A stretch of DNA of 57,494 bases from Candidatus Gastranaerophilales bacterium (GCA_944322625.1 CALUPN010000001.1:1-57494); one strand, 5' to 3'. Shown: positions 3,544-50,970, counted from the stretch's first letter. Notes: generated by a model not told the origin, from the sequence alone. Numbers and translations: made by a program.

Positions 3544-3618
3544 ACGCTTGTCATCCAATGGTTAGGGTGCTGGTCTTATACACCAGTTATCTAGGTTCGA
3601 ATCCTAGCGAGCGTACCA
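3544..3618 (+). tRNA. tRNA-Ile(UAU)
   Basis: Acceptor ACGCTTG/CGAGCGT, anticodon arm CTGGT-CTTATAC-ACCAG, GGTTCGAATCC, CCA end. Confidence 0.9.
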
Positions 3619-3621
3619 AAT

Positions 3622-3695
3622 ACACGGATAATTTAAAGGTAGAATATTGATCTCCAAAATCAATTGTATAGGTTCGAGTCCTAGTCTGTGTGCCA
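3622..3695 (+). tRNA. tRNA-Trp(CCA)
   Basis: Acceptor ACACGGA/TCTGTGT, loop CTCCAAA, T arm, CCA. Confidence 0.9.
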
Positions 3696-3698
3696 TAT

Positions 3699-3775
3699 TG
3701 ACGAATGGAGAAATTGGTAAACTCACTGGTTTTTGGCACCAGTATTTGATAGTTCGAGTCTATCTTCGTCAGCCA
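3699..3775 (+). tRNA. tRNA-Gln(UUG)
   Basis: Acceptor TGACGAA/TTCGTCA, loop TTTTGGC, CCA. Confidence 0.9.
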
Positions 3776-3780
3776 TGTTT

Positions 3781-3857
3781 TGCGGGTTGGTAGAAGTGGT
3801 TATCTCGTCGCCCTCATAAGGCGAAGTTCGTTGGTTCGAATCCAACATCCGCAACCA
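3781..3857 (+). tRNA. tRNA-Met(CAU), initiator-like body
   Basis: Acceptor TGCGGGT/ATCCGCA, arm TCGCC-CTCATAA-GGCGA, CCA. Confidence 0.85.
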
Positions 3858-25448: not shown

Positions 25449-26054
25449 ATGAATTTTTACACAATAGCACAGGAAATAGGTATCGCCGTAGCAGGAATAA
25501 TCATAGCCTTAATTACTTGCAAGCAATACCTTAACAAATATTTTAAAAAAACTGACGTGGCAAAATTACTACCAAAACAGAATAAGATGGACGTTGGTGT
25601 AGTCGAACAATTGGAATCAGTAAAAGAAATACTGAATGCCGATAGAATACACATTTACGAATTCCATAATGGCGAACATGGTTCCAACAATAGACCACTC
25701 TATCGTTTCTCATGTACATACGAGGTATGTAAAGCGGGTAATAAACCGGTTCAACAACAATGCCTAAACTTACCAACCAATTGTATGCCCAAATTCGTAC
25801 AAGAAATCATGGACAACGGAAAATTCGTTTGCACTGACTTGGAAACATTAAAAGATACAATGCCTAGCACTTATAACTTCAAAAAGAGTATAAAAGTTGG
25901 AGCATTTTACGATATAGCAATTAAGAATAAAGAAGATGAAATCATCGGTTTTATTGCAATTCATTGGTTCAAAAAAGAAAATTTTAAAACAGACAATCAA
26001 GTCATAGATAAACTTGTTTGGTACGTAAGTGAACATTTACAAAATTCAAAGTAA
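25449..26054 (+). CDS. N-terminal TM + GAF-like domain protein in the lysis cassette
   Basis: LNADRIHIYEFHNG...IIGFIAI; adjacent to holin. Confidence 0.6.
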   Translation: MNFYTIAQEIGIAVAGIIIALITCKQYLNKYFKKTDVAKLLPKQNKMDVGVVEQLESVKEILNADRIHIYEFHNGEHGSNNRPLYRFSCTYEVCKAGNKPVQQQCLNLPTNCMPKFVQEIMDNGKFVCTDLETLKDTMPSTYNFKKSIKVGAFYDIAIKNKEDEIIGFIAIHWFKKENFKTDNQVIDKLVWYVSEHLQNSK

Positions 26055-26066
26055 AGGAGATAAATT

Positions 26067-26279
26067 ATGAAAGAGAAAATTACAAAATTAATCGATTTAA
26101 AATCTATTATAACAATTCTAATGGCAATCACATTAGTAGTTGGCTTTTTCACGAATCGAATCGAAGCAGACGTTTTTATCCCGTTTGCAACGATGACATT
26201 CACGTTCTATTTTACAAAAAAGAACCCAAATGAAACGACAAGCAATGCGGTTGAAAGTGAGGTAACAAAAAATGAATAA
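26067..26279 (+). CDS. Holin
   Basis: 70 aa, two TM segments, precedes endolysin. Confidence 0.75.
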   Translation: MKEKITKLIDLKSIITILMAITLVVGFFTNRIEADVFIPFATMTFTFYFTKKNPNETTSNAVESEVTKNE

Positions 26280-27069
26280 ATTTTATTTTGGCATGGAAAC
26301 AATGCGAATCACACAAAATTATAACGGAACGGCTAGCCATTATAATCATTCTCATGGTACACCAGTTGATTATCCAATTGATTGCGCAGGTGTAGATGGC
26401 AAGCAGAGTGCTTATTTTGCTCCGGTTGACATGAAAGTGGTTGCTATCCGTGGAGTAGGTAACTACGCAACCAATACAATATGGCTAGAAACAACAGAAA
26501 CGGTTCAAACACCGACGTTTAACGATATTGTATGGCTAACACTAACACATTGGAATGACGGCTCTATCACGTCTAAATTTAAGTCTGGCGACATAATCAA
26601 AGCAGGTGAAATTATCGCTTATGAAGGAACCGACGGAGCAACCGCAAATCACTTACATGTGACATGTGGCCGTGGTCATTGTAACTCATGGACAGAAAAT
26701 ACAAAAGGTTCATGGGTAATGAGTGGTACATCACTTCCACCAGAAGATGTTATGTATATTAATGACGATTTCACAAAATGCGTAGATTCTGGTGGACTGG
26801 TTTTCAAAAGTATGCCTAAAAACGACACAAACACGTCAAATTCTAACGAAAACACATCAGGACAGTCAAACACTAAGACCAAACGAGTTGGTGTCACAAA
26901 CGGGCTTTATTTGATGAAATTAGACAACAGTGCAAAAATTACACTTATGCCACATAACGCTACTGTAAAGATTCTTCAAGAGAATTATACAACCGCAAAA
27001 GGTTATGCTATGGATAAAGTTGAATACAACGGAACAGTTGGTATGTGTGCAAATAAATATTTAAAATAG
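26272..27069 (+). CDS. Endolysin: M23 peptidase with C-terminal SH3b-like domain
   Basis: H...PID and HLH zinc ligands; linker; YNGTVGM..NKYL end. Confidence 0.8.
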   Translation: MNKFYFGMETMRITQNYNGTASHYNHSHGTPVDYPIDCAGVDGKQSAYFAPVDMKVVAIRGVGNYATNTIWLETTETVQTPTFNDIVWLTLTHWNDGSITSKFKSGDIIKAGEIIAYEGTDGATANHLHVTCGRGHCNSWTENTKGSWVMSGTSLPPEDVMYINDDFTKCVDSGGLVFKSMPKNDTNTSNSNENTSGQSNTKTKRVGVTNGLYLMKLDNSAKITLMPHNATVKILQENYTTAKGYAMDKVEYNGTVGMCANKYLK

Positions 27070-27090
27070 TTAGGGAAACCTAACTTTTTT
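27068..27090 (+). terminator. Intrinsic terminator of the late operon
   Basis: AGTTAGG-GAAA-CCTAACT plus T run. Confidence 0.8.
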
Positions 27091-27145
27091 ATTTGTTTTA
27101 CTTTTTACCGATTTCGTGCTATCATAATTCGCAAGGAGTGAGATA

Positions 27146-28369
27146 ATGAAAAAAGATTTGGATAAGATTTTATCCAGTACATTGAAAACATATTTTATCA
27201 TTTTAATTGGAATTGTCGTTGTAAAATTATTCGGATTCGATTACTTTGGATTAGACACTAGCAACGAAATAATCATCATGATAGATAATTTTATAAAAAC
27301 GTTCCATTTGAAATTAGTATGGTATGCTATTACATTATATATTTACCAATACGTGATATTCAGTATTACTTGTGTTGATAACAGTAAAGCAATGAAATTA
27401 TACACACTATACACGTTACCAATAGCAATTACCATACAATTGTTAAAAACACAAATTAATGCACCATATTTATTTGCAATTATTGATTTATTATGGTTAT
27501 TTATGTTTTCTATATTGTATATTAAAATGGTAAAAAGAAATAAAATTGAAAAGTATAACGTAAGTAATTATTGGATATATTGTGTAGTCAATATGATATT
27601 TCAATTACTAAGTATGTTTATTAGAAACATAGATATGTCTGTGGATTATAATAACTTTATAATGTCGTTTGTTGGTAATATTGATTATATAATATTATCC
27701 ATTATGTTTTACACTTACTTTTATTTAAAAGGAGGTAAGTCATTATGGGATGGGGTAGTTTCTTCTTTTTCGCACCTACGGACTTTATTAAGAACTTTGC
27801 CAACAAAGTTGCAAAAGTTTTATCTAAATAATAAAGCCAAAAGTAGATTCGATAAGATTTCGGACTGTATTTACATTCCATTGTTCTTACTTTGGAATGT
27901 TTTTACTTTATTAGTAATCTTATTCGTAGCAACGTTAAATCATACTTTTGTTGAATGTATTATCATCGCCACTAGTTTTTGGATAAACAAGAAAACATTT
28001 GGCAAGCCATTCCACATGAAAACAGCACTTAGTTGTTTTATGGTTTCCAATCTTACATATTATTGTTTGAATAGAATCACGATTCCGAATGGAATATCGT
28101 TAATAGTCTCCGTTTCACTTGGTATCGCATTATGTTACATGACAAGCAAATTTGTAAAGAGCAAGAAGTTATACCGTGGTATGTCAATCGAGGAATACGA
28201 CAAAGTTGTATTACCTTCATATTCTATAAACAGTATCTACTATGAAATTGGTAAATTGTTTTATGTAGACCGTTATAGCGAACAATGGATTGCAAACAAG
28301 TTATCCTATTCTATCCCTAGCATTCAAAAGAAAAAGTATGAGTTGAAAAACAAAGTGAAAGGACAATAA
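27146..28369 (+). CDS. Polytopic membrane protein with AgrB-like peptidase domain and C-terminal HTH
   Basis: FGKPFHMKTALSC has the AgrB His-x6-Cys dyad spacing; YSEQWIANKLSYSIPSI HTH. Confidence 0.7.
   Translation: MKKDLDKILSSTLKTYFIILIGIVVVKLFGFDYFGLDTSNEIIIMIDNFIKTFHLKLVWYAITLYIYQYVIFSITCVDNSKAMKLYTLYTLPIAITIQLLKTQINAPYLFAIIDLLWLFMFSILYIKMVKRNKIEKYNVSNYWIYCVVNMIFQLLSMFIRNIDMSVDYNNFIMSFVGNIDYIILSIMFYTYFYLKGGKSLWDGVVSSFSHLRTLLRTLPTKLQKFYLNNKAKSRFDKISDCIYIPLFLLWNVFTLLVILFVATLNHTFVECIIIATSFWINKKTFGKPFHMKTALSCFMVSNLTYYCLNRITIPNGISLIVSVSLGIALCYMTSKFVKSKKLYRGMSIEEYDKVVLPSYSINSIYYEIGKLFYVDRYSEQWIANKLSYSIPSIQKKKYELKNKVKGQ
27745..27831 (+). CDS. Nested 28-aa AgrD-like peptide MGWGSFFFFAPTDFIKNFANKVAKVLSK
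   Basis: Perfect AAGGAGGT RBS 8 nt upstream; alternative frame inside the AgrB-like gene. Confidence 0.6.
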   Translation: MGWGSFFFFAPTDFIKNFANKVAKVLSK

Positions 28370-28436
28370 AGTCCTTTTTATTATGCTTTTTTATGTTTTA
28401 TTTTAGATAAAATTATATTAGAAATGAGGTAAATTT

Positions 28437-28679
28437 ATGTTAGATAAGAAAACGTATCTTGCGATGAAACGCGAGATTAAATGTGTTTGTCGCAAAAACC
28501 TAAAGGAATTATGCGAAATTATGGAATTTGATGACTTTGAAAAGGAACTACTTTTCAAGTTTTATGATGGCGACACCGTACAAAAGATTTGCATGGATTT
28601 ATGTATATCGGCTATGACGTACAATAGATATATGCACAAAATATTATCCAAAATATACAATTATAAAAACACCCATTAG
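28437..28679 (+). CDS. Sigma-region-4/LuxR-type HTH regulator
   Basis: GDTVQKICMDLCISAMTYNR. Confidence 0.7.
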   Translation: MLDKKTYLAMKREIKCVCRKNLKELCEIMEFDDFEKELLFKFYDGDTVQKICMDLCISAMTYNRYMHKILSKIYNYKNTH

Positions 28680-28695
28680 GGTGTTATTTTTATTT

Positions 28696-28772
28696 TGGAG
28701 CACCATACCCGAATTGCACGAGTGTCTATTTGATTTGCAGTCAAATCGGCTTCGCTTCTTGCCTAATGGTGC
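28696..28772 (-). tRNA. tRNA-Cys(GCA)
   Basis: Reverse strand acceptor GCACCAT/ATGGTGC, arm TTTGA-CTGCAAA-TCAAA, CCA; atypical T loop TGCAATT. Confidence 0.85.
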
Positions 28773-28811
28773 ATATTTAAGGGAAGTAATCCCCTTATAG
28801 TTTATCACATT

Positions 28812-29168
28812 TCATTTCACTATCCAAGCATTTTCGGCAATTTTATCACGAGGATCAAAACTGTCATATATTACACCATACTTTGAACAAGTTATATGGC
28901 CATTCATTGTTATTAGTAATATGTTGTCTGGATAATCTTCTGCTACTTCCCCCACTGTTTCGGATAAGTATGGAACTTCTTCGTACTTGGTTGATAAATA
29001 TCTATTTATAAAATTTCTATCATCCATCATAGTACCTTCAAATTGTGCGATGTCGCTAAGGTGTTCATAAACGTCATCCCAACTCTTTCCAGTTGCCATG
29101 GAAATTGACCTTACGGTACAATCGTTCTCAAACAATCCTCTAGCATTTGCATTGTAAAATCTATACAT
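28812..29168 (-). CDS. Conserved phage protein (DC.VR...GH...DS.D; possible Cys-His-Asp peptidase fold)
   Basis: NDCTVRSIS, GHIT, YDSFD motifs. Confidence 0.6.
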   Translation of the reverse strand: MYRFYNANARGLFENDCTVRSISMATGKSWDDVYEHLSDIAQFEGTMMDDRNFINRYLSTKYEEVPYLSETVGEVAEDYPDNILLITMNGHITCSKYGVIYDSFDPRDKIAENAWIVK

Positions 29169-29707
29169 TACATCTCACTTATTTCTCTTGCGTATTTTTT
29201 AATCATTTCCATTTCTTCTTGCAAACCAGCATCTTCTTTTAGCATATCGAAGAAACAAACGACACTTTCAAGCATATATTTTAGGCTTTTCATAGTATCT
29301 TCTTTTGCACCATATCCACGATTATACTGTTCTTTATCTTCTGCATAATCTTGGTAATTACGATACATTTCTTCCATAGTATCGTCGCCATGGTATCTTC
29401 CACCACGTCCACCTTCCATGTATCTGCCTCTGGAATCTCTTCTTCTACGTCCATAACTGTCGTCGTACATATCACGACCAGATGAACCTCTACCATACAT
29501 ATATCTCATATTATCCTCCTTCTCTTTCCAATATTCTTCATTTTCGATATCCTTATGAATATCGATTACTTTATATAATATATCAACATTATCGCTTCTA
29601 AGACCGTCTTTGATGATTTCATTCATCATTTTTTCGGTTTCTTCTTTGACTTGATGTATTATATTTTTATTTTCGGTTTGTTCCATATTTTCATTCATGG
29701 TCATCAC
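29168..29707 (-). CDS. Conserved hypothetical protein with RRRRDSRGRY motif
   Basis: Low-complexity R/G/Y/D core. Confidence 0.7.
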   Translation of the reverse strand: MMTMNENMEQTENKNIIHQVKEETEKMMNEIIKDGLRSDNVDILYKVIDIHKDIENEEYWKEKEDNMRYMYGRGSSGRDMYDDSYGRRRRDSRGRYMEGGRGGRYHGDDTMEEMYRNYQDYAEDKEQYNRGYGAKEDTMKSLKYMLESVVCFFDMLKEDAGLQEEMEMIKKYAREISEM

Positions 29708-30172
29708 CTACGATTTCTTAGTAATTGAGAAATTAGCATTTTGAATAACCGGTACTTCTGTAACAGTTGCCGTTCCAGGTGCTTCATCGCCTGTTAGAAT
29801 GCTAGGTACTGATTGTACTGTCAACGTAGCATCGCCACGGCAACAAATGCGAAGTTTCTTATCAAATGAAATATTTACATAATCACCGGCGGTTGTAATC
29901 TGTGCAATCATCGTTGTTCCTGGTACTAATACACCGTCTTGATAAAGTCCTAAAGAAACTGTTCCTGCAACTGATGATGTAACATTTGCATTAAATGAAA
30001 CTTCATAGATTCCACCGCATAATATTTTATATAATGGCGAACCTTCATTATGTTGCAACCAACCGTTGCAATAGCAATTAGCACTTCTTGTTCTCAAATC
30101 GTCTACACTAAATGGAACACTAGCAGAGTTGCTAGTTAATGCTGTGATAGGTTCTAAAACGCTTTGTATCAT
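29708..30172 (-). CDS. BclA-C/C1q-like beta-sandwich protein
   Basis: GIYEVSFNANV motif, Cys pairs. Confidence 0.6.
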   Translation of the reverse strand: MIQSVLEPITALTSNSASVPFSVDDLRTRSANCYCNGWLQHNEGSPLYKILCGGIYEVSFNANVTSSVAGTVSLGLYQDGVLVPGTTMIAQITTAGDYVNISFDKKLRICCRGDATLTVQSVPSILTGDEAPGTATVTEVPVIQNANFSITKKS

Positions 30173-30288
30173 ATTATCAATCCTTTCTTTATAAAATAAA
30201 AGAGATAGGACTTGCCTATCTCAAATTGGTCGATTTCGACCAAATTAGCAAGTTCCTGTAATCAGGTTAGTCTGTTAGACCTATGCTA

Positions 30289-31080
30289 TTAAATTACTGT
30301 TCCATTACAACCGCACGTGCTATAGCAACAGTTCGGGTTTGGAACAACGTATGCTGGGATAGGGCAAGCCTTTAATTGGTTAAGTAAGTAAGTGTTTTGT
30401 GCTTCTTGGCTTGCTTTCAAACGTAGAGCATTAATTTCGTTTTGTTGTGAAGCAATTTGTGCATTCTTATCTTCGATACGGTTAGCAACAATTTCATCAT
30501 GCAATGCACGATAATTTGCATTTTGATTATCAATTAAATCTCTAGTATTATTACATAATGTTTGTTGAATAGCATTTGTATTCATAGCCATATTGTAATT
30601 AATTCCGTCAATGCCACGTTGTGTTTGGCAGCCGTAATCAGAAATTTGTTGTCTTAAAGTACAGCAACAGTCTGCTAACTGACTAGACAATCCTTGAACA
30701 CCTAAACGAGTTTCATATCCATTAGTTGTAATGGCTTGATTAATACCACTAAAACCTTGACATAATGTTTGTTGCGTTGCTGCGAAACCATTTGTCATAG
30801 TGTTGTTTAGTGCAAACGTACTATCACATATACCATTTGAAATCGTATCTAGTTTTCTATCAACCTGTGCAAAATCGCTAGCCAAAACGTATCCGTCTGT
30901 AACTCCACCATAGTTTCCACCGAAGCCACCGCCAAATCCGTTTCTTCCATAACCAAAGATTAGGAAAAGTATAATCCACCAGGCTCCGTTGTTTCCCCAG
31001 CCATAATTGTTGTTATTTCTGTTAGTTCCAGTTATTAATGCAACGTCACTTGGGGATAAAGCACCATCACTATAATTCAT
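30289..31080 (-). CDS. Gly/Asn/Cys-rich membrane-anchored coiled-coil protein
   Basis: WWIILFLIFG, ADCCC, Cys-rich tail; GGAGG RBS gives ATG 31080. Confidence 0.75.
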   Translation of the reverse strand: MNYSDGALSPSDVALITGTNRNNNNYGWGNNGAWWIILFLIFGYGRNGFGGGFGGNYGGVTDGYVLASDFAQVDRKLDTISNGICDSTFALNNTMTNGFAATQQTLCQGFSGINQAITTNGYETRLGVQGLSSQLADCCCTLRQQISDYGCQTQRGIDGINYNMAMNTNAIQQTLCNNTRDLIDNQNANYRALHDEIVANRIEDKNAQIASQQNEINALRLKASQEAQNTYLLNQLKACPIPAYVVPNPNCCYSTCGCNGTVI

Positions 31081-31264
31081 ATTCTGACCTCCTTTTATTA
31101 TTTTAAATTCCTCATCTTTACCAAAACCCACACGTGTGTTATAATATAAGTGTTCAGTTAAGAAAAAAGGAATTTATATAAATGTATTATTACGGTCTTA
31201 ACTGAACATTAAACCCCGCAATAGTGCATTTATATAAGTTTCTTTTTATTTTGAGGAGGATATT

Positions 31265-31780
31265 ATGAGAGAAATATTTAAAGACATAAAGGGTTATAAT
31301 GGTTTATATCAAATAAGTAATTGCGGAAAAGTTAAAAGTTTGAAAAGAAATATAATTTTAAGGCCATCAGTTAACCATAAAGGATATTTGCATGTAATTT
31401 TATATAAAAATGGTAATTCTAAAATAGGTAGAATACATCGTTTGGTTGCAGAAACATTTATACATAATCCAGAAAATAAACCTCAAGTCAATCATATTGA
31501 CGGAAACAAAAGAAACAACAATGTTAATAATTTAGAATGGGTAACAAATAGTGAAAACCAAAAACACGCTTTTAAAACGGGATTACAGACTAATAAAGGT
31601 AATAATAATCCACGTGCAAGAAAAATAAATCAATACAATCTAAATGGTGAATTAATAAAAACGTGGAATAGTTGCTATGATATCACCAAAAAACTAGGTA
31701 TAGATAGATCGTCTATTTGGAGATGTTGTGTAGGAAAATGCCATAAAAGTCATAATTATATATGGAGATATGCTGAATAA
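31265..31780 (+). CDS. NUMOD4-HNH homing endonuclease with C-terminal NUMOD1-like domain
   Basis: YQISNCGKVKS, HRLVAETF, VNHIDGNK.NN...NLEW. Confidence 0.9.
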   Translation: MREIFKDIKGYNGLYQISNCGKVKSLKRNIILRPSVNHKGYLHVILYKNGNSKIGRIHRLVAETFIHNPENKPQVNHIDGNKRNNNVNNLEWVTNSENQKHAFKTGLQTNKGNNNPRARKINQYNLNGELIKTWNSCYDITKKLGIDRSSIWRCCVGKCHKSHNYIWRYAE

Positions 31781-31792
31781 AGCATATCTCTT

Positions 31793-32029
31793 TTATTTAA
31801 AATTACTCATAAACTGTGAAAACTCCTCGTCATAATTTCTCCCTTGACCTTTTAATAAATTTCTAGCAAAATTTTCTAATCCTTTTGTATCTCCATTCTG
31901 TGCCATTTTTATTAAATTTACGAAAATGGGATTCGTGTTGTTCATGAGTAATTGAGATGCCACTTCTTGTGGATTTTTTCCACCTAATAATGTTTTTAAA
32001 TTTGGATTTGAATTGTTCATATTAATCAC
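31793..32029 (-). CDS. Conserved hypothetical protein
   Basis: NPQ...NP...MAQNGD..GLENFARNL. Confidence 0.7.
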   Translation of the reverse strand: MINMNNSNPNLKTLLGGKNPQEVASQLLMNNTNPIFVNLIKMAQNGDTKGLENFARNLLKGQGRNYDEEFSQFMSNFK

Positions 32030-32477
32030 CTTTATCGTCTAAATTCAATTGGATTTCTTTGATTTGTTTTTTTATCGATTTCATTTCATCTTTAATAGTT
32101 TTCAAATCTTCACTTGCATCTAATGATTGTATTTTTTTATTCAATTCGTCAGATGTTACATATGTTATTTTTGCTTGATCATCGCTTTCAACAGGTTTAT
32201 AAATAACAGTTTTACTAGTTCCGTCAGTTTGAATCTTTTTTGTTACAATGGCACTACCGTCAGTTAATGGGAAATAACTTGTACTTCCGTCTAAAGGAAT
32301 GTCCATTGCTTTTACAACATCAATACTATCGACTGATTTACCTAGTAATCCCATTGTCTGTTGTTGACGTGGTTGCATATAAGGTTGATTGTTAATTGGT
32401 GGTGTTTGCATATTTTCCATTGGTTGATACCTTTGAGGTGGTACATAATAAGGGTTATAATTATTGAACATATTCAT
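32022..32477 (-). CDS. Conserved hypothetical protein, Q/P/Y-rich N-terminus
   Basis: IPLDGS.SYF...DG motif; GGAGG RBS. Confidence 0.75.
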   Translation of the reverse strand: MNMFNNYNPYYVPPQRYQPMENMQTPPINNQPYMQPRQQQTMGLLGKSVDSIDVVKAMDIPLDGSTSYFPLTDGSAIVTKKIQTDGTSKTVIYKPVESDDQAKITYVTSDELNKKIQSLDASEDLKTIKDEMKSIKKQIKEIQLNLDDKGD

Positions 32478-32666
32478 TCCTCCTAAAATAAAAAGTGCTT
32501 CCTTATAACAAATTAATTTATTATTAAGGAAACACCTCCGATAAAGCAGACAGAAAACATTAACTTGTTTTCTGATTAAATTGTATTACTTTTTGAGTAT
32601 AGAATAATATCAAGTTTATAAACATAAAATATCGTTTTTATAACAAAAAAAAAAGCCAAATGGCTT

Positions 32667-33119
32667 TTAATCTAAATCATCAAAATCTTCTTTTTCTGCG
32701 ATTGCATTCCGTGGAGAATCGATTACTTCTCCAGTATCATCATTCACCAGGCTAATTACTTTTTTAACATTGGCGAAAACAGGTAATGTTCCATCTTGTT
32801 TTGGTGTTTTGCCTTCTGAATGTTTTACTTCACAAAGTACTTTTTTTCCAATTAATTTTTTAATATCAGTTGCAGTATCAAACTCATCTCCATCTTCTAA
32901 TCCAAGTGCGACAGAACAAAGTACACTCATAGCAAATAGCGATTGGTCGTTATCAAAGTTATATCTGTTTTGTATTTTTCCACCATCACCATGTGCAAAC
33001 GTAACAATCATTGCGGTTGGTTTACCGCTAGGTTTTAATTCTGCTCCAGTAATTTCTAATACTTGTTCTCCCTCTGGTACTAATTTGAAATTTCCTTTTA
33101 AATTCATTTTTATTATCAT
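32667..33119 (-). CDS. Single-stranded DNA-binding protein (DUF669-like)
   Basis: VPEGE start, acidic tail EDFDDLD, next to recombinase genes. Confidence 0.7.
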   Translation of the reverse strand: MIIKMNLKGNFKLVPEGEQVLEITGAELKPSGKPTAMIVTFAHGDGGKIQNRYNFDNDQSLFAMSVLCSVALGLEDGDEFDTATDIKKLIGKKVLCEVKHSEGKTPKQDGTLPVFANVKKVISLVNDDTGEVIDSPRNAIAEKEDFDDLD

Positions 33120-33121
33120 TA

Positions 33122-34204
33122 TTAATCTTCTCCTTTTTCTTTTACTTTTGTTAATCTGTATGTAATACTATCTTTCATATAATTTTCATATGTCTTTGGA
33201 TGGTCTTGCTTGAATAATTTTTCGTCAAATTTCTTGCTTACCGTCCCACTTAATTTATATGTTCCATATTGTACTTTTGTTTCATTTTCACCAAGCAATT
33301 CCATCATTTTTTCTTTAATTGAACTTTCCACAGTTTTTAATGTTTTTTCTAAATCATCAAGTGAATTATTCTTACGAATAGTATTAATTTCATCTTGTAA
33401 GAAACTTGCATAATTTATCAGAGAATCTAAATCATTATCGTTACCTGGTTGTGTTTCTCGCATGATGTCTAAGTATTCTTTGTCTTTTATTTCATCAAAT
33501 CTTGGTGAAACTCCATTTTCAATATGATTATTCCACCACTCCTCACAATATTTTATGATATCTTCAAATGTCATTAATTTTCCATTTACATCAACAACAA
33601 TATCTTTTAATTTCTTAACAACAATGATTGTATTTTTTTCTGTTGGCTTGAATTGTTCAGGATGATTGTAATCGTCATCTTGCAAGAAGGCACATATAAA
33701 CACGATACGATCAATACCTTTTAAGTAAGCATATTCTGCACCTTGTAACAAATATGTAATTGGAACATTATTGTTTTCCCATTCCTGTGGCTTTGAACTC
33801 GTCTTACATTCTATAATTGCCGTAAGTGTTTTCATATCATCTTCTGTACAAACGGCGTCCATTACACCACCGAAAACGTTGCTATCGTTTACAAAGTTAT
33901 TATATCTATATGTATCAATGTTATTTCCATAGTATTCTTCAATACTCATTGTATTTGGAAATTTTTTTGCAATTAAATCAATAAGTTTTGGCTCAATTGC
34001 TTTACCAGCCAAAGTATATTTGGTATCTTCAAACGGTAATTTTACTAACTTTGTAATTTCTGCCCAAGCACCGAATGGTGTTTGATACGGATTAAGTCCT
34101 AGAACACTAGCCATTCTATGACCAGTGATTCTAAGTCTTTGTTTTGGTGGTTCATTCAATACAATATGTTGTCTATCTTCCGAATAGTTCCATTCCTTAG
34201 CCAT
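33122..34204 (-). CDS. YqaJ/lambda-Exo-like exonuclease
   Basis: ASVLGLNPYQTP, G..IEP, D...IECKT. Confidence 0.85.
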   Translation of the reverse strand: MAKEWNYSEDRQHIVLNEPPKQRLRITGHRMASVLGLNPYQTPFGAWAEITKLVKLPFEDTKYTLAGKAIEPKLIDLIAKKFPNTMSIEEYYGNNIDTYRYNNFVNDSNVFGGVMDAVCTEDDMKTLTAIIECKTSSKPQEWENNNVPITYLLQGAEYAYLKGIDRIVFICAFLQDDDYNHPEQFKPTEKNTIIVVKKLKDIVVDVNGKLMTFEDIIKYCEEWWNNHIENGVSPRFDEIKDKEYLDIMRETQPGNDNDLDSLINYASFLQDEINTIRKNNSLDDLEKTLKTVESSIKEKMMELLGENETKVQYGTYKLSGTVSKKFDEKLFKQDHPKTYENYMKDSITYRLTKVKEKGED

Positions 34205-35048
34205 TATTTTCTACCTCTTTTAATTTCTTTTTTACTTTTAAATCAATTTCAAGAATATCTGCCGAACTTAATGTTCCGCTCATAAGTTTATTTAATGTTG
34301 GTGTTCCATATTCTTGATTACCAGTTAATTCTCTAATTTTCATAATATTTTCGCATACCGCTTTAATATCTTCTTCATCACTAGGTTCTTGTTGAACTTG
34401 TTTTACTACTTCTTGCTTAATTTCCTCTTTCTTTTTTTCTGGTACATATACAGGTACTTTTGGTTTTGATTTTTCTTCCGGTTCTTCAATCTCTTCCTCC
34501 AGAACATCTTTTGGTGTAAAGTTTTTATAGAACCAATTTCTAAACGCCATTGAACTTGCACTAGCAACCGCTTTGTCAATGGTATCACTACCTTGTGCAA
34601 TTGTGATATATTCTTTGCATGCTCCTGTTTCTAAATCTGTAAATGTTGCAACAGTTTTAACAGTTGCTACATGAATCGGAAGTGAGTTTGCAGGTTTTGT
34701 TAGTTCTTTATCAAATTGAATTAAATCTGTTGTTTCAAATGAGAAGTCAAGACCAACTTCAATTGCTAATTCTTGAATCGCATCATAGAATTGATCAATA
34801 CTATAATAATCTCCACCACCCAAAATCTTTGGTAATTCTTTATCTAGTACGAATTTTCTTTCTCTTACTCTCTTTCTAAATTCATTTAACTTTTTAAGTA
34901 ACATAACTTTCATTGTTCTTTCATCATATTCTTTTACTTCTTCCACCTTTTTACTTTCTCCTTTCATTTTATTTACCATGTCCATTAATTTTTCGTTCTG
35001 TTCCATGGACGTTTGTAATTTTTGCTCTAACTCTTGTTTTGTAGCCAT
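34197..35048 (-). CDS. ERF-like ssDNA annealing protein (internal start)
   Basis: Own promoter and AAAGGAG RBS before MATKQ; G.D..DKAV..A.S.A.R motif. Confidence 0.7.
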   Translation of the reverse strand: MATKQELEQKLQTSMEQNEKLMDMVNKMKGESKKVEEVKEYDERTMKVMLLKKLNEFRKRVRERKFVLDKELPKILGGGDYYSIDQFYDAIQELAIEVGLDFSFETTDLIQFDKELTKPANSLPIHVATVKTVATFTDLETGACKEYITIAQGSDTIDKAVASASSMAFRNWFYKNFTPKDVLEEEIEEPEEKSKPKVPVYVPEKKKEEIKQEVVKQVQQEPSDEEDIKAVCENIMKIRELTGNQEYGTPTLNKLMSGTLSSADILEIDLKVKKKLKEVENNG

Positions 35049-36014
35049 ATCTTTTTCTCCTTTCTGTATGTTATTATTGTAGCATAATATATCATAGTAG
35101 TCAATATTTTTTTTGTCATTTTCAATTATTTTTATTAGTTCTTCTTTTTTTGTACTTTTATCAACTTGTAATCCCAAATTGGAAGCAATCTGCAAAAGTT
35201 CTTCTTTCTTATATTCTTCAAGTCTTTTAATACCAAGGAAATCGTTTACCCGTTTGTTTGCTAAGTCAATATACCATTCTTTATTAATATCGTCAATCTT
35301 ACATTGATTTGCATTATCTACTATCGGATTCGGAGGTTGATTCGCCAAACTATCACGTCTACCATCCGGTTTTACTTTTATAATCGCACCACTTGAAATA
35401 TTACCTGCATAGATACGATTATTTCTTTGAAGTTCAATATCTCCATTTGGTGATTCTTGCACGCATTTTTCATAAGTAGAGCCAAGATGTGATATGATTT
35501 GGAAACGAAATATATCATCGCACTTATTAATTGTTTCCTCCGTTGGAATATCAAAAAGTAATTTTTTTAATATTGCTTCGGATACGATCGTCATAGAATT
35601 ACTTTTCAAATCATCTTTAAATTTGTAATGAAAAACGTGTTTTTCTTTATCCCATGTAAATATATGTTTTCCTGTGAAGTTTCCACCTTTATAGTTTACC
35701 TTGTAATCGTTATTTCCAGTCTGTACGATTTCGACGTAATTATTGACATCTCGCATGATTATTTTTACAACTTTATCTTCTTCTAATTCAAGTCCAGTTA
35801 GTTTTTGCCAATCGTCGAGTACTTTATGGGCTTGTTCTTTATATTCTTCATCTACTTCATATAAAATTGCATCTGTGTTGCAGCTAATTGTTTCCAATGT
35901 TGGTACTGTTTTTAAATCATATATTAATTGTAATATAAATAATTGTCCTGTGGTACATATACTAAATCCTTGTAAATTATCATATAAATCATTGAACTTC
36001 GCTCTAAGACCGCC
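34197..36014 (-). CDS. DNA polymerase (family B-like) C-terminal part, in frame with the ERF-like protein
   Basis: GGLRAKFNDLYD...GQL, NTDA motif C, RDVNNY; frame open upstream of track start 35897. Confidence 0.75.
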   Translation of the reverse strand, partial: GGLRAKFNDLYDNLQGFSICTTGQLFILQLIYDLKTVPTLETISCNTDAILYEVDEEYKEQAHKVLDDWQKLTGLELEEDKVVKIIMRDVNNYVEIVQTGNNDYKVNYKGGNFTGKHIFTWDKEKHVFHYKFKDDLKSNSMTIVSEAILKKLLFDIPTEETINKCDDIFRFQIISHLGSTYEKCVQESPNGDIELQRNNRIYAGNISSGAIIKVKPDGRRDSLANQPPNPIVDNANQCKIDDINKEWYIDLANKRVNDFLGIKRLEEYKKEELLQIASNLGLQVDKSTKKEELIKIIENDKKNIDYYDILCYNNNIQKGEKDMATKQELEQKLQTSMEQNEKLMDMVNKMKGESKKVEEVKEYDERTMKVMLLKKLNEFRKRVRERKFVLDKELPKILGGGDYYSIDQFYDAIQELAIEVGLDFSFETTDLIQFDKELTKPANSLPIHVATVKTVATFTDLETGACKEYITIAQGSDTIDKAVASASSMAFRNWFYKNFTPKDVLEEEIEEPEEKSKPKVPVYVPEKKKEEIKQEVVKQVQQEPSDEEDIKAVCENIMKIRELTGNQEYGTPTLNKLMSGTLSSADILEIDLKVKKKLKEVENNG

Positions 36015-36016
36015 AG

Positions 36017-36247
36017 TTAAGTGTACGCATTTAGGGGTAACTTAAGACCAGATTTTAAATCATCATTAGTAAGTCCTAAAGGCTTTAAAAAATCTTCTGT
36101 TAGTTTTCCTTTTTTTGCTTTCATACGCATAGAAAGCAAATTTACATAAGCATCCTTATCTTGTTGATTTCGACTCGAATAACCGTACAATCTTACTAAA
36201 TTAGGATAAAGTGAACTCACATCCCAGTTCTCCAAAATACGTGTCAT
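36017..36247 (-). CDS. DNA polymerase middle fragment (motif A and start of motif B)
   Basis: DVSSLYPN and KLPLNAY. Confidence 0.85.
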   Translation of the reverse strand: MTRILENWDVSSLYPNLVRLYGYSSRNQQDKDAYVNLLSMRMKAKKGKLTEDFLKPLGLTNDDLKSGLKLPLNAYT

Positions 36248-36855
36248 TATTCATCACCCCCATCCTCGACATACTCAAAAGACCATCCAAGATATTTCTT
36301 ATGTGTTTTGCATGATTCTGATATTCCTCCTCGTTTTGTTTTCACACAAAATATACCTAGTGAACAAGAAAAAATACTATCGAATAACAACACATTATCA
36401 TCTTTTTTTGCTATTACTTTTTTTGCTTTTATTTTACCTCTACCTTTAAATCTTCCATCATATTCATATTTATAATATTTCTCAGTGTTTTCTTTATTCG
36501 TTAACCATTGTAAGTTATCAACTCTATTATTTAATGAGTTATTATCTATATGGTCTGCTATTGGTTTATTTTCTGGATTATGGATAAATGCTTCGGCAAT
36601 CACTCTGTTAACTCGTCTATAATAATGTTTACCATGAGCTTTTAAATCAACTTGATAATAACCATCTTTTTTTAAAAGTTGTTTTAATATTCTTCCATTC
36701 TTAGAAGTACCATTTCTAGGTATTGTTTTTATTCTTCCATAGTTACTACATACATAACAATCTGGAGCATCTACAACTGGTTTCCAAATTTCATTAGGCA
36801 AATCTTCAAGATTAAGCCATCTATCAGTATTCACGTCAATATCGATTAATCGCAT
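36247..36855 (-). CDS. NUMOD4-HNH homing endonuclease inserted in the polymerase gene
   Basis: EIWKPV..Y.CSNYGRIK, DHIDNN..NN..NLQW. Confidence 0.9.
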   Translation of the reverse strand: MRLIDIDVNTDRWLNLEDLPNEIWKPVVDAPDCYVCSNYGRIKTIPRNGTSKNGRILKQLLKKDGYYQVDLKAHGKHYYRRVNRVIAEAFIHNPENKPIADHIDNNSLNNRVDNLQWLTNKENTEKYYKYEYDGRFKGRGKIKAKKVIAKKDDNVLLFDSIFSCSLGIFCVKTKRGGISESCKTHKKYLGWSFEYVEDGGDE

Positions 36856-37709
36856 TTGAAATCACATCCGTTATCATATTTATACGTGGTTAGTTTTGCA
36901 CCATGTATTCCACCATGACCCAATTGTATCACACATTCATCATACTGTAAAGATGGTGCTATACTTTCGTAGTTTAAATCATTATGCTTTATAACGTCAT
37001 CTATATAATTTAAGAAAGACTTCGGTATTTTCGATTTATCAACTTGCTTTGGATATACATACTTAAACGGATCATCATGATTCTTTCTTTTTGCTCCCAG
37101 TAACACTGATGTTAGTTTCGCATCAGTCAAACTCATTCCATATTTCAAATCCATTTTTCCAAGTCTTGCAATAATATATTTTGACTTATATTTATTTATC
37201 AACATTTCAAATATTGGAAACAATGCTTGAACATCACAAGTACAGTAATATAGTACTTCCTCATATTGTTCTTTCGTCCATTTTGTTGGTAAATCAAAAG
37301 GAACAGTTGTTTCAGTAATGTTTAACCTTAACGAGCCTTCCAATTCCTTTAAGGATTTCCTAGGAACAATTTCATTGAACAAATCCCACATGATTGGAAG
37401 TTCCATATATCCGCAATCAATATCCCAACCATTTCCTCCACCAATAATGTAATCGCTGACATCTTTTATTTCTTCTGGTGTATATCCCGCAAGCAAGCAT
37501 TTCAATATATACTTATCGTATGCGTTACAGTTATATCCCATAAGAATTGGTTTCTTTTGGTCTAAAAAATTTTGTACGTCATTTGGTAACGAATTATGAA
37601 AAACAAATCTTTCTTTTGTTCTATACGATATAAAAACAAATAGTGTATCGTGGGCAAACACTTCACAGTCGAATCCGTATAAGTTATCTAACAATTCATC
37701 GAAACTCAT
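36846..37709 (-). CDS. DNA polymerase N-terminal 3'-5' exonuclease fragment
   Basis: FDCEVF (ExoI), GYN..YD (ExoII), YC..DV (ExoIII), GGIHG. Confidence 0.85.
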   Translation of the reverse strand: MSFDELLDNLYGFDCEVFAHDTLFVFISYRTKERFVFHNSLPNDVQNFLDQKKPILMGYNCNAYDKYILKCLLAGYTPEEIKDVSDYIIGGGNGWDIDCGYMELPIMWDLFNEIVPRKSLKELEGSLRLNITETTVPFDLPTKWTKEQYEEVLYYCTCDVQALFPIFEMLINKYKSKYIIARLGKMDLKYGMSLTDAKLTSVLLGAKRKNHDDPFKYVYPKQVDKSKIPKSFLNYIDDVIKHNDLNYESIAPSLQYDECVIQLGHGGIHGAKLTTYKYDNGCDFKCD

Positions 37710-48613: not shown

Positions 48614-49333
48614 CTAATCCAAGTCAGACCATATATAATCTGATAATAAATTTCTGAATATTGCTTGTAAAACATTAACAACTATACTATTACCAGCTTG
48701 TTTATATAATTGTGTATTGGAATTAACTTTTTCTGCTTTATCAAAATCTTCATCATCAAATCCCATAAGTCTCCAAGTTTCCTTTGGTGTTAATTTTCTT
48801 ATTCTTAAATTATTAGTTACGCAACCAATATCAGGGCTTGTTTTTAATGTTGGTATCATTTCTTTTTGAACTGTACCTCTTTTTTTATCTATATTTGATA
48901 TATAAACACCGTTACCGTCAGTTGCTTCTAAATAACCTTGTTTAGTAGCATTTTTTATTAATAATGTATTTCCACTCAAACTAGTAGAACCTATTTTTGT
49001 TGTTAAACAAGGTGACAATCCGTTTTTTCTTATTCTCAATCCTTCGTCATATCGATAGTCTGCAACTACACATTTAGGATCTTTCCAATCCCTAGCACAT
49101 AAAGTATCACAATATTCTTTTTCTTGGATACGTCTATTGTTCTGATGAAATGTACTACATCTTATTTTTTCAATTTGTTCATCACTCAAATAGTATTTTT
49201 CATCAACATCATCCTCAAGGATGTCTTTTAATTTTAATTTTAACTCTTGTTTTGGTGGGAAAATAAAATTTAATTTTTTTATCTTTCCTTGTTTTTCTAA
49301 ATCATTTAATATATCTTCACACTTTTTATACAT
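48614..49333 (-). CDS. C5 cytosine methyltransferase, C-terminal part (TRD, motifs IX-X)
   Basis: RKLTPKETWRLMGF, YKQAGNSIVV; AGGTGG RBS before ATG 49333. Confidence 0.85.
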   Translation of the reverse strand: MYKKCEDILNDLEKQGKIKKLNFIFPPKQELKLKLKDILEDDVDEKYYLSDEQIEKIRCSTFHQNNRRIQEKEYCDTLCARDWKDPKCVVADYRYDEGLRIRKNGLSPCLTTKIGSTSLSGNTLLIKNATKQGYLEATDGNGVYISNIDKKRGTVQKEMIPTLKTSPDIGCVTNNLRIRKLTPKETWRLMGFDDEDFDKAEKVNSNTQLYKQAGNSIVVNVLQAIFRNLLSDYIWSDLD

Positions 49334-49847
49334 ATATCCACCTGTAACCTTTAACACTTCTTCGTTTTCCTTTACAACACTCACATATACTAGAAGTACT
49401 TATATTATTTTCCCGTCCAGCATCACTCATAGATTGATAAATGGTTTTTACACCATCTTTATCTATTCTAGCCACTTTTACTCTTGTTACGGTTATCATT
49501 TGTTCCACGTTTTTATGTTTTTCAGTTGCATATTCTTTTTCTCTATTTTCTCTCCAAGTAACTATTCTCATATTATCAAAAGAATAACCCTTACTATCGT
49601 CTAACCTATCAATAGATGGTACATCATCACTATTATAATTATTTAATGTCCAATTTTTAAAAAGAGTTGTAAATTCATCATAATAATTATCAATAATCCA
49701 TTTTTCTAAATCCCACCTATCAAAAGTCAAATCTCTTCCAAATTTTACTCTTTCTCTTTGTTGCATTCTTTTATAATGTGTATTAAACCAACCTGTCAAG
49801 GTGTACTTCGTTTTATTATATAATTTTTTATCTCTACTGTTTCCCAT
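49326..49847 (-). CDS. HNH-type endonuclease (SIDR.D family) with NUMOD1-like tail
   Basis: PSIDRLDDSKGYSFDNMRIVT; YQSMSDA...ICECCKG. Confidence 0.8.
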   Translation of the reverse strand: MGNSRDKKLYNKTKYTLTGWFNTHYKRMQQRERVKFGRDLTFDRWDLEKWIIDNYYDEFTTLFKNWTLNNYNSDDVPSIDRLDDSKGYSFDNMRIVTWRENREKEYATEKHKNVEQMITVTRVKVARIDKDGVKTIYQSMSDAGRENNISTSSICECCKGKRRSVKGYRWIYV

Positions 49848-50364
49848 CTTCTCTCACTCCTATAATAAAAATACGTTCTCTATGTTGGGGAATAGGGTCT
49901 GGATATCCTACTTCACAAGCATTTAACACATCCATAGTTACTTTATAACCATTGTCATTTAAAAAACTCAAATATTCCTCTAGTTGTGGTCTAAATCTTT
50001 CAGATAATATATTTTTAACATTTTCAGCGATTACATACTTGGGTTTTAACTTACTTATAATTCTCATCATCTCATACATTAATCCACTTCTAGTTTCACC
50101 TTTTATTATACCAGTTTGTTTGCCAGCTAGACTAATATCTTGACAAGGAAAACCACCACATAATAAATCAATATCTACATCTTTATCCCATTTGCAAATG
50201 TCTTGTGGTTCAAAGTTTGTATTATGAATAGCATTAAAACTTTTTACTGCATACTTATCTATTTCCACATAATCCACAATCTCAAAATCTATCCCTAATC
50301 TTTCAAGTGCTTTACTACAAGCACCTATTCCACCGAAAAGTTCTAATATTTTTAAAGTTTTCAA
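49834..50364 (-). CDS. dcm: C5 cytosine methyltransferase, N-terminal part (motifs I-VIII)
   Basis: ELFGGIG, GGFPCQD, ENV, QHRERIF. Confidence 0.9.
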   Translation of the reverse strand: MKTLKILELFGGIGACSKALERLGIDFEIVDYVEIDKYAVKSFNAIHNTNFEPQDICKWDKDVDIDLLCGGFPCQDISLAGKQTGIIKGETRSGLMYEMMRIISKLKPKYVIAENVKNILSERFRPQLEEYLSFLNDNGYKVTMDVLNACEVGYPDPIPQHRERIFIIGVREDGKQ

Positions 50365-50415
50365 ATTTACACCTCCTCAAACACAGTTTATCTCATTTTT
50401 CATTTTATAAATCAA

Positions 50416-50970
50416 TCATACTTCATTTCCCCAGCAATCCCATCCATCTGCTTGTTGCCTGGCAAATAGTTCGATCCGTGGTAAATCTCCAAATAATTGC
50501 ACGATTCTATCTCTAGTTTCGTCTGGTTTTCTGCTATGTTCTCTTATTTTTGATAATATTACTTGATGAACACTTCTGCTAACTCGTTTTAAAGGTTTTC
50601 CTTTTGTTGCTAACAAACATAATTCGGCATTCGCTCGAGTATAATGCCCCATACCCCAAAATAAACTGTTTTTTGTTTTGTTTTGTTTTATCCAAGTAAA
50701 ACCAATTGTTTTATATTTGAATCCCCACACATCTATTACTTTCAATCCTTCTTGTAAGCAAGGTGCTGTAACCCACAAAAATAACACACAATCTTTATCG
50801 GATATTCTATCTATTGGTAAATCGCATATATCGTTGACATCCATAGTTTTATAATGGCTTTCTGCAGTCCTTCCCGTTCCATTATTTTTTGGCCATACTT
50901 TATACGACCATGGTGGATCTGCATAAATTATCTTATATTTTTTGTTGGTGTTATAAATGTCAATTTTCAT
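50416..50970 (-). CDS. MT-A70 family adenine methyltransferase
   Basis: YADPPW, LFLWVT, HSRKP, ELFAR, WGNE. Confidence 0.92.
   Translation of the reverse strand: MKIDIYNTNKKYKIIYADPPWSYKVWPKNNGTGRTAESHYKTMDVNDICDLPIDRISDKDCVLFLWVTAPCLQEGLKVIDVWGFKYKTIGFTWIKQNKTKNSLFWGMGHYTRANAELCLLATKGKPLKRVSRSVHQVILSKIREHSRKPDETRDRIVQLFGDLPRIELFARQQADGWDCWGNEV

Follow-up and report, generated by a model that had tools for sequence, protein, structure and literature searches.

A phage-borne fusion of an orphan membrane domain, a half AgrB and a helix-turn-helix, with a nested gene for a putative leaderless peptide precursor

Known agr and phage signalling systems

In the staphylococcal and clostridial agr systems, the precursor AgrD is ordered as leader, ring and tail (PMC10196373), and MroQ acts as a second protease in the maturation of the S. 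aureus peptide (PMC10482373). A serine lactone is known from S. intermedius, but precursors with Ser are not processed by the AgrB of S. aureus (PMC10482373). Mutants in the K129-131 loop of S. aureus AgrB retain peptidase activity and make no AIP (PMC10196373), and the rings of clostridial peptides can convert into homodetic cycles (PMC8251862). Phage agr cassettes, kinase-less ones included, are known already: the agr3 cassette of phiCDHM1 consists of separate, host-like agrC, agrB and agrD genes, as the initial annotation of the present locus had noted, and the Brevibacillus phages Davies, Emery and Abouo carry AgrB and a peptide together with membrane proteins that lack a kinase (PMC3901668). 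In the Davies cassette, a small predicted DNA-binding gene follows, which is LytTR-like by inspection. In fsrB/fsrD of Enterococcus faecalis, the signal is a Ser lactone and the precursor gene lies, with its own start, inside an agrB-like gene. Located at the 3' end and read in the same frame, fsrD codes for a leader and a product of 11 residues, which acts through FsrC/FsrA.

The locus described here lies in a window of 57,494 nt. It shares with staphylococcal and clostridial agr the AgrB fold, in which the basic residue, His and Cys are placed correspondingly, a (here predicted) ring of five residues with a hydrophobic last residue, and a hypervariable block over the peptide and the adjoining membrane domain (PMC10482373, PMC10196373). 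Unlike the agr systems in these sources, its precursor is leaderless, has the helix after the ring and is nested out of frame; Ser or Thr replaces Cys in 98/98 distinct fused-locus peptides; AgrB lacks helices 5-6 and carries a helix-turn-helix (HTH); and the phage has neither a kinase nor a LytTR regulator. With the phiCDHM1 cassette it has in common a phage-borne AgrB and precursor and the absence of a response regulator, whereas that cassette has separate genes, a kinase, a classical AgrD and no DNA-binding part (PMC3901668). Davies, Emery and Abouo likewise differ in their separate genes and N-leader precursor (PMC3901668), and gp44 and gp45 of Davies show no detectable likeness to the membrane domain described here (probability 0.2%). 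Arbitrium/RRNPP systems resemble the locus in a phage-encoded peptide and a one-component receptor-regulator; they use a linear, re-imported peptide and a cytoplasmic TPR receptor (10.1101/2021.07.15.452460), in contrast to the predicted ring, the predicted membrane receptor, the processing enzyme in the same chain and the integrase-free phage found here. In lambda cII, as at the predicted operator of this locus, direct repeats straddle the -35 element (PMC3335776). A search of titles and abstract openings returned no published description of the fusion or of a nested or leaderless AgrD.

Architecture of the fusion gene and its nested precursor gene

The features of the locus are listed in Table 1. 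The initial annotation had described an open reading frame of 407 aa with a multi-TM N-terminus, a quoted internal segment and a C-terminal HTH, followed by a second HTH gene of 80 aa. Both genes were found as described, the profile matches of the second being weak. For the fusion protein, ten membrane helices are predicted, six in residues 1-196 (6TM domain) and four in the AgrB part, with the linker between them on the inside; the structure model has a pLDDT of 88.5. Loop charge bias in 81 relatives places the catalytic dyad and the HTH inside and the variable loop 160-172 outside. In the 6TM domain, K27 and D180 are invariant and Q153 and R160 nearly so.

Table 1. Positions of the locus features, counted from the first nucleotide of the window
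Feature	Position	Strand	Remarks
Endolysin terminator hairpin	27065-27095		5' of fusion promoter; z -2.9
Putative promoter of fusion gene	27097..27125	+	Sigma-A-like TTTACT, 17 nt, TG-extended TATCAT
Fusion gene, 407 aa	27146..28369	+	6TM domain, linker, half AgrB, HTH
Orphan six-helix membrane domain (6TM)	27146..27733	+	Residues 1-196; predicted receptor
Ribosome-binding site of nested gene	27729..27736	+	AAGGAGGT; conserved KGG of long frame
Nested precursor gene, 28 aa	27745..27831	+	+2 frame, in linker of fusion gene; MGWG tail, predicted SFFFF ring, Lys-rich amphipathic follower helix
Predicted ring of precursor	27757-27771		SFFFF
AgrB catalytic half, helices 1-4	27827..28150	+	Pfam, HHalign, conservation
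AgrB codons	27989-91; 28013-15; 28034-36		K282; H290; C297
Sigma-region-4-like HTH	28172..28366	+	Recognition helix ~residues 389-397 (SIPSIQKKK)
Intrinsic-terminator-like hairpin	28357..28381	+	End of fusion gene; z -3.9
Predicted operator-promoter	28382..28413	+	TATGCT-N4-TATGTT over -35 GCTTTT; -10 TAAAAT at 28408-28413
80-aa soluble HTH	28437..28679	+	Weak GerE match; predicted relay to inverted operon
tRNA-Cys	28696..28772	-	3' end of linked operon; ARAGORN, Rfam
Six-gene operon	28812..32477	-	151, 78, 280, 154, 179, 118 aa; predicted final target
Operon leader	32478..32612	-	Hairpin and U-run (32478-32575, z -7.0); promoter -10 TACAAT at 32585-32580

The AgrB domain, for which the annotation had proposed a Pfam search, was recovered by PF04647 (residues 236-324, with E 5e-6 and 26.3 bits, the cut-off being 23), a profile that also matches 42/53 aligned relatives, and by HHalign against 24 canonical AgrB proteins (probability 93%, 94 columns, template positions 21-115 of 215). 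The PF04647 match stops at position 104 of 185 and is followed by the HTH; helices 5-6 of the six-helix AgrB, with the region of K129-K139, are missing. Lys282, His290 and Cys297 are invariant in 81/81 locus-derived relatives. In the widest alignment, His and Cys are kept in 51/53 sequences, both being lost in P0190 and P0205, so that the pair is conserved in homologs as the annotation had anticipated. Compared with R70/H77/C84 of S. aureus, the basic residue is located one place further from the His.

Residues 343-407 resemble sigma-70 region-4 and KorA-type HTH folds (VIA Z 8.1-8.9, rmsd 1.6-2.6, 56-64 residues); the best match is 8jzt_A (Z 8.9, rmsd 1.6, 56 aligned), with a Z near the range of common helical folds. 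Pfam Sigma70_r4 matches 8/53 aligned relatives. A GHKL kinase domain is absent from the 407-aa protein in a profile scan, and neither HATPase_c nor Response_reg matches the phage contig, in agreement with the earlier statement that the genome has no histidine kinase or response regulator.

At E<=0.001, the fusion has 463 relatives of 223-713 aa, and 168 clusters at 50% identity were counted with fragments included; the 120 listed are 362-411 aa long, and many phmmer matches span one half of the fusion only. No PHROG or NCBIfam family was found for it, and it has no match among 50,697 GenBank phages. Foldseek with the whole model returned nothing at E<=0.001, the best ESM Atlas match (0.84) was unnamed, and a solved AgrB structure is absent from the fold-search result lists. 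A 429-aa UniProt relative (A0A8S5R960), which was all that the 6TM domain alone matched in the viral fold library, bears the bare name 'Accessory gene regulator B'. Many weak family matches were sigma factors aligning to the HTH and were discarded. L013 and L014 are classical agr loci and L015 is a sigma factor.

The nested precursor gene was followed through 116 loci, some contigs of which occur in two collections, the metagenome loci being the best 80 of 84. Among them, 103 are fused, with one open frame over the linker, four are split, three are unrelated and six are fragments. In the +2 frame, 101/103 fused loci contain an SD-led ORF of 20-45 aa that begins with ATG, and GTG is the start codon in the remaining two; no such ORF occurs in that frame in 96,135 nt from other parts of these genes. 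The gene was also present in all of six further loci with <90% identity to the examined set. The motif [S/T]xxxF-[A/G/S] occurs in 98/98 distinct peptides (87 with S, 11 with T), which comprise 37 ring types. The ring is preceded by 2-8 residues in 95 of these peptides and by 14 in three, Asp or Glu is common at +3 and +4 past it, and an amphipathic follower of 17-24 residues comes last, with a hydrophobic moment that exceeds that of its own shuffles in 98/98 and a median net charge of +3. The nested peptides share with AgrD a ring motif of the C/S-x-x-x-hydrophobic type and a tail with acidic residues; the N-terminal amphipathic leader of AgrD (TIGR04223) is absent and the helix comes after the ring. 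No NCBIfam model matched the nested peptide, while the classical control L013 was matched at E 7e-11. By these sequence features, the nested peptide is a leaderless, inverted AgrD.

The nested ORF is kept, its own ribosome site included, across 33-92% identity of the long frame. Conversely, the long frame is open over the peptide in 98/98 cases, in a set that was itself defined as fused, whereas synonymous recoding expects 9.7; a genome scan seeded on the AgrB motif also gave 23/23 fused loci with an open frame. Since both frames are conserved beyond expectation, both appear to be under selection. An SD-led internal start before the AgrB part was found in none of 101 loci, so AgrB-HTH is presumably made as part of the fusion. 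With the ring first and no leader, a second protease such as MroQ would be unneeded. Because Ser is not accepted by S. aureus AgrB and the loop linked to cyclisation is missing, ring closure is likely, not certain.

Split forms have the same gene order as the fusion, with the 6TM gene directly before the peptide in each form read. In L009 and L012 the three genes are separate, and in L010 and L011 the peptide is in frame at the end of the membrane gene. In L213-L217 a membrane gene with a nested +2 peptide is followed by AgrB-HTH (one of them has a stop in the membrane gene), and in L150 a membrane gene with a nested Cys peptide is accompanied by separate AgrB and HTH genes. Judging from these arrangements, the split forms, L150 and the full fusion make up an evolutionary series. 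The split-form peptides of L009-L011 lack S, T or C at the ring position, an argument against a single chemistry shared by all forms. These precursors (2105-2248 in L009) keep Gly2 and Phe9, and a head-to-tail cyclised 8-mer is possible. A scan with AgrB-HTH of L009 gave no viral loci. In L149 (G493:C5:8445-11978), the three domains are kept and the peptide gene, His and Cys are lost together; P0190 and P0205 keep the three domains without the dyad. From their sequences, these variants may be listen-only receptors.

The 6TM domain aligns colinearly with helices 1-5 of AgrC sensors in a global HHalign comparison (profile of ~30 kinases), at a probability of only 0.7-1.5% (P 0.04), and a single-sequence comparison with an AgrC sensor was negative. 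Its best PDB fold match, a rhodopsin (Z 6.6, rmsd 5.3, 126 aligned), is not trusted. The MroQ/CPBP motifs EExxxR and FxxxH (PMC10482373) do not occur in the 6TM consensus, in which K27, Q153, R160 and D180 are the conserved residues. A 6TM profile search returned fusions among its top 120 matches and brought out no kinase-linked forms; in 399 genomes of another class (two unscored), only the seed and one spurious match were recovered. A complex prediction of fusion and precursor scored 0.10 against a mark of 0.32 and was given no weight in either direction.

Covariation was analysed in 118 of the 120 nearest proteins (two of <400 aa dropped), with the peptide read from the long frame. In 116/118 proteins, the residue of the exocyclic tail changes together with the TM5-TM6 block, with 21 tree changes and six starred independent pairs (sign test, median p 0.03); since tail and outer loop are adjacent on the DNA, linkage may be enough to account for this. 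Ring position 2 tracks Thr68 and columns of TM3, at a distance of 400 nt, in 118/118, and this association is independent of the tail and loop in between, with three tree changes only (p 0.5). The AgrB half shows no association with peptide variants among these close relatives. In 81 distant loci, for which the tree was not controlled, nine of the ten top columns for ring position 2 lie within the 6TM domain, while ring position 4 and the follower covary with AgrB columns; the Thr68 rule is loose there (Thr68 in 13/39 Trp rings). With moderate strength, the covariation fits a division of labour between a receptor (6TM) and an enzyme (AgrB).

Predicted operator, downstream genes and genomic setting

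A direct repeat of period 10 follows right after the terminator of the fusion gene, its TA cores located 26 and 16 nt before the -10 element. A fixed rule for repeat and -10, drawn up after viewing the loci first counted, is matched by 30/60 loci without a downstream kinase (0.2 expected in shuffles), 9/11 kinase-linked loci and 0/57 upstream controls. The -35 between the repeats is poor (at most 3/6 match to TTGACA in 39/39). A scan of the whole window for further repeat promoters gave mostly intragenic chance matches. Five recognition-helix classes, derived from the same loci on which they were first counted, pair with five repeat classes: 57/73 loci match (two also fit another class), one is a mismatch, five are without repeat and ten helices are unclassed. 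Among eight new loci, five of the six scorable ones match, one has no repeat and none is a mismatch; two are unscorable. The locus in the window combines a P-S-I-Q helix with a TATG repeat. Independent-pair tests of helix and repeat are not significant (three and two pairs), and both are neighbours on the DNA, so that linkage can explain their covariation. From the pairing of classes, binding of the HTH to the TAT-N7-TAT repeat is very likely. Lambda cII is soluble and protease-controlled, from which the membrane-tethered HTH differs.

The first gene behind the repeat in 101 loci is the Q/N-rich gene of the operon in 35, the 80-aa HTH in 22, a GHKL kinase in 11 and another gene in 11, with 22 loci too short. 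In the 80-aa HTH loci, the operon is inverted in 21/22, and the 80-aa HTH gene is absent within 3.5 kb in 35/35 direct-operon loci. As the 80-aa HTH and a directly following operon are mutually exclusive, a relay is the most economical reading. Only weak matches, to GerE and sigma-4, were obtained for the 80-aa protein (E 0.004, below cut-off). The operon promoter contains an imperfect repeat in the same register as the operator of the fusion gene, and it is our guess that the 80-aa HTH would bind there. Rfam has no match for the leader hairpin of the operon, possibly an attenuator or a small RNA. In the 35 direct-type loci, the leader hairpin has a z below -2 in 27/35 and TAAAAC[AG] occurs in 20/35.

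The operon proteins are rich in Gly, Asn, Gln, Tyr and Cys; they belong to unnamed families that are widespread in phages (PHROGs of unknown function) and have a weak BclA_C match below cut-off. Five operon families adjoin the fusion in 42-49/101 loci. The tRNA-Cys is found in 11/101 loci, and Rfam matched only this tRNA here. Low complexity, Cys clusters, the BclA_C match and tRNA-Cys might, at a guess, point to a surface polymer or one resembling a spore coat. An HNH gene (31265-31780, plus strand) is inserted in the operon and is missing in the chicken-gut relatives compared.

Since a GHKL kinase gene follows the fusion in 11/101 loci, a kinase may take part there. The kinase-linked copies are scattered on the tree (seven changes), and the three inspected (L039 4983-7055, L040 and L041 4114-8434) are chromosomal by their neighbours. 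In L041 a LytTR response regulator and a full AgrC-like kinase flank the fusion, in an agrA-agrC-agrB locus (both GHKL and LytTR were confirmed); the other inspected chromosomal copies are found before a one-helix GHKL kinase (GHKL confirmed), near what we take to be sporulation-type genes.

The window is a complete tailed-phage contig (C1 of bin G000) with a 77-nt terminal repeat and genes for terminase, portal, capsid, tape measure and polymerase. Bin G000 contains Omp85 genes, has no AgrB apart from the phage's own and shares with C1 one 138-nt match of 72%, so that G000 may not be the phage host. No CRISPR-like array was found in this host-link comparison. Fourteen of 23 genome-collection relatives are in MAGs titled Bacilli, Erysipelotrichaceae or Mollicutes, presumably RF39-type Bacilli, and four split-type loci are in bins of G000's own family (4/400). 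Neither a tyrosine integrase nor a resolvase matched on C1, and lysis-lysogeny control by integration was therefore set aside.

Several further observations concern the window and its relatives. Four tRNA genes (Ile-TAT, Trp, Gln, Met; 3544-3857, plus strand) are located upstream of the terminase. The DNA polymerase gene (34197-37709, minus strand) is in pieces around a NUMOD4-HNH gene (36247-36855), which suggests an intron or intein-like insertion, and C5 cytosine and MT-A70 adenine methyltransferase genes (48614-50970, minus strand) have a NUMOD gene in between. Relatives ~95% alike to 26000-33000 are found in chicken-gut metagenome contigs of one study (runs X1-X3); in one chicken-gut run, joints skip the variable loop block 27630-27743, hinting at co-occurring alleles. 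Most small-genome Bacilli of the order of G401 carry a classical agr locus with agrC convergent with agrB-agrD.

Proposed mechanism, alternatives and significance

The module is real, conserved, re-engineered and agr-like, and it stands outside the four-component agr family yet presumably works by AgrB chemistry. The reading that we favour, and hold to be somewhat probable, is that the locus encodes synthase, receptor and regulator in a single protein, with a hidden precursor gene in the linker; its role as a receptor, the closing of the ring and whether it activates or represses are predictions. Going by AgrB chemistry, the amphipathic follower would take the precursor to the inner membrane face, where Cys297 and His290 would form an acyl-enzyme at Phe9, Ser5 would attack and the follower would be released. 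The predicted product is GWG-cyclo(SFFFF), a five-residue Ser lactone with a calculated [M+H]+ of 976.435 for residues 2-9 or 1107.476 if Met is retained, the linear forms being heavier by 18.011; by analogy with agr, a ring is the likely form. The released ring and its short tail would then bind TM2-TM3 and the outer loop of TM5-TM6 from outside, and the covariation suggests that ring and tail probably do contact the 6TM domain. The ligand would alter how the tethered HTH dimerises on the TAT-N7-TAT repeat, and by comparison with lambda cII the HTH would probably act by activation. In the window, gene order points to the soluble 80-aa HTH as the output, and this protein would pass the signal on to the operon, inverted here; in other clades that operon lies directly behind the repeat. 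The net effect would be a sensor of density or co-infection by which the timing of a phage accessory operon is set, its allele groups keeping the signalling private. The one-component idea of the initial annotation gains much from the nested precursor gene and the HTH-matched repeat, both of which lay outside it.

A host-directed signal is the first of several alternatives, and an unlikely one: the peptide would mimic or antagonise the AIP at the host AgrC, and the HTH would be regulated otherwise or not by the peptide. Such a model was already proposed for phiCDHM1 (PMC3901668). It fits the small-Bacilli order holding the close relatives, where AgrB is over cut-off in 176/251 genomes, the GHKL domain occurs in 73/121 and the predicted rings are likewise hydrophobic pentamers, and it fits the position of the L041 fusion amid a LytTR regulator and a full AgrC-like kinase. 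However, the host-order precursors are of the classical Cys-ring, N-leader type in 20/26 loci read (4/30 unparsed), unlike the Ser/Thr rings of the phage, the peptide variants track the phage's own 6TM domain, and the 6TM gene directly precedes the peptide in every split form read. Equally improbable in our view is a purely intracellular timer, in which AgrB would sense the bound precursor or acyl-enzyme and move the HTH, and 6TM would export or shield the product with no outside signal. The constant AgrB-HTH fusion beside a separate 6TM gene in L009-L012 and L213-L217, the missing helices 5-6 that are linked to ring formation, and, among the distant loci (tree not controlled), the covariation of AgrB columns with the follower and ring position 4 speak for it. 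On the other hand, outer-loop allele groups that vary with the exocyclic tail would hardly be expected if nothing bound from outside, AgrB and HTH are separate genes in L150, and the dyad-less L149, P0190 and P0205 with their three domains fit a listen-only receptor.

The cationic amphipathic helix with its median net charge of +3 would also suit a membrane-active leaderless toxin or exclusion peptide with 6TM as its immunity protein, and matched peptide and membrane alleles are typical of immunity pairs too. The strict [S/T]xxxF-[A/G/S] register, the invariant dyad and the joint loss of dyad and peptide argue against this idea, which leaves HTH and repeat unexplained and is very unlikely. Finally, separate genes might be joined by an accidental open frame, or the nested ORF might be a by-product of the linker. 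Split forms do exist and many phmmer matches span one half, but 463 relatives of 223-713 aa (362-411 aa among the 120 listed), an openness far over expectation with no internal start, and a nested ORF kept with its ribosome site at 33-92% long-frame identity have largely refuted this explanation, to which we give next to no credence.

Returning to the single-protein circuit, we advance only tentatively, and with more doubt than belief, the wider proposal of a second, chemically distinct family of phage communication: a one-polypeptide synthase, outside-facing receptor and transcription factor, whose cyclic depsipeptide would be encoded within the same gene; specificity groups would be interchangeable, the HTH-operator code could be read, and there would be listen-only variants as well as host-chromosome copies controlling host kinase genes. 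The circuit comes with predictions for ligand mass, catalytic mutant, operator and allele pairs, and the unit is a 1.3-kb fragment, possibly a compact orthogonal sender-receiver part or a one-step maker of cyclic peptides. If true, AgrB could dispense with helices 5-6 and act on a precursor whose leader has shifted to a place after the ring, a point that matters for substrate recognition by AgrB and for ring maturation without MroQ, and phages would possess a kinase-free, single-gene peptide-signalling circuit, a form of communication outside the arbitrium family.
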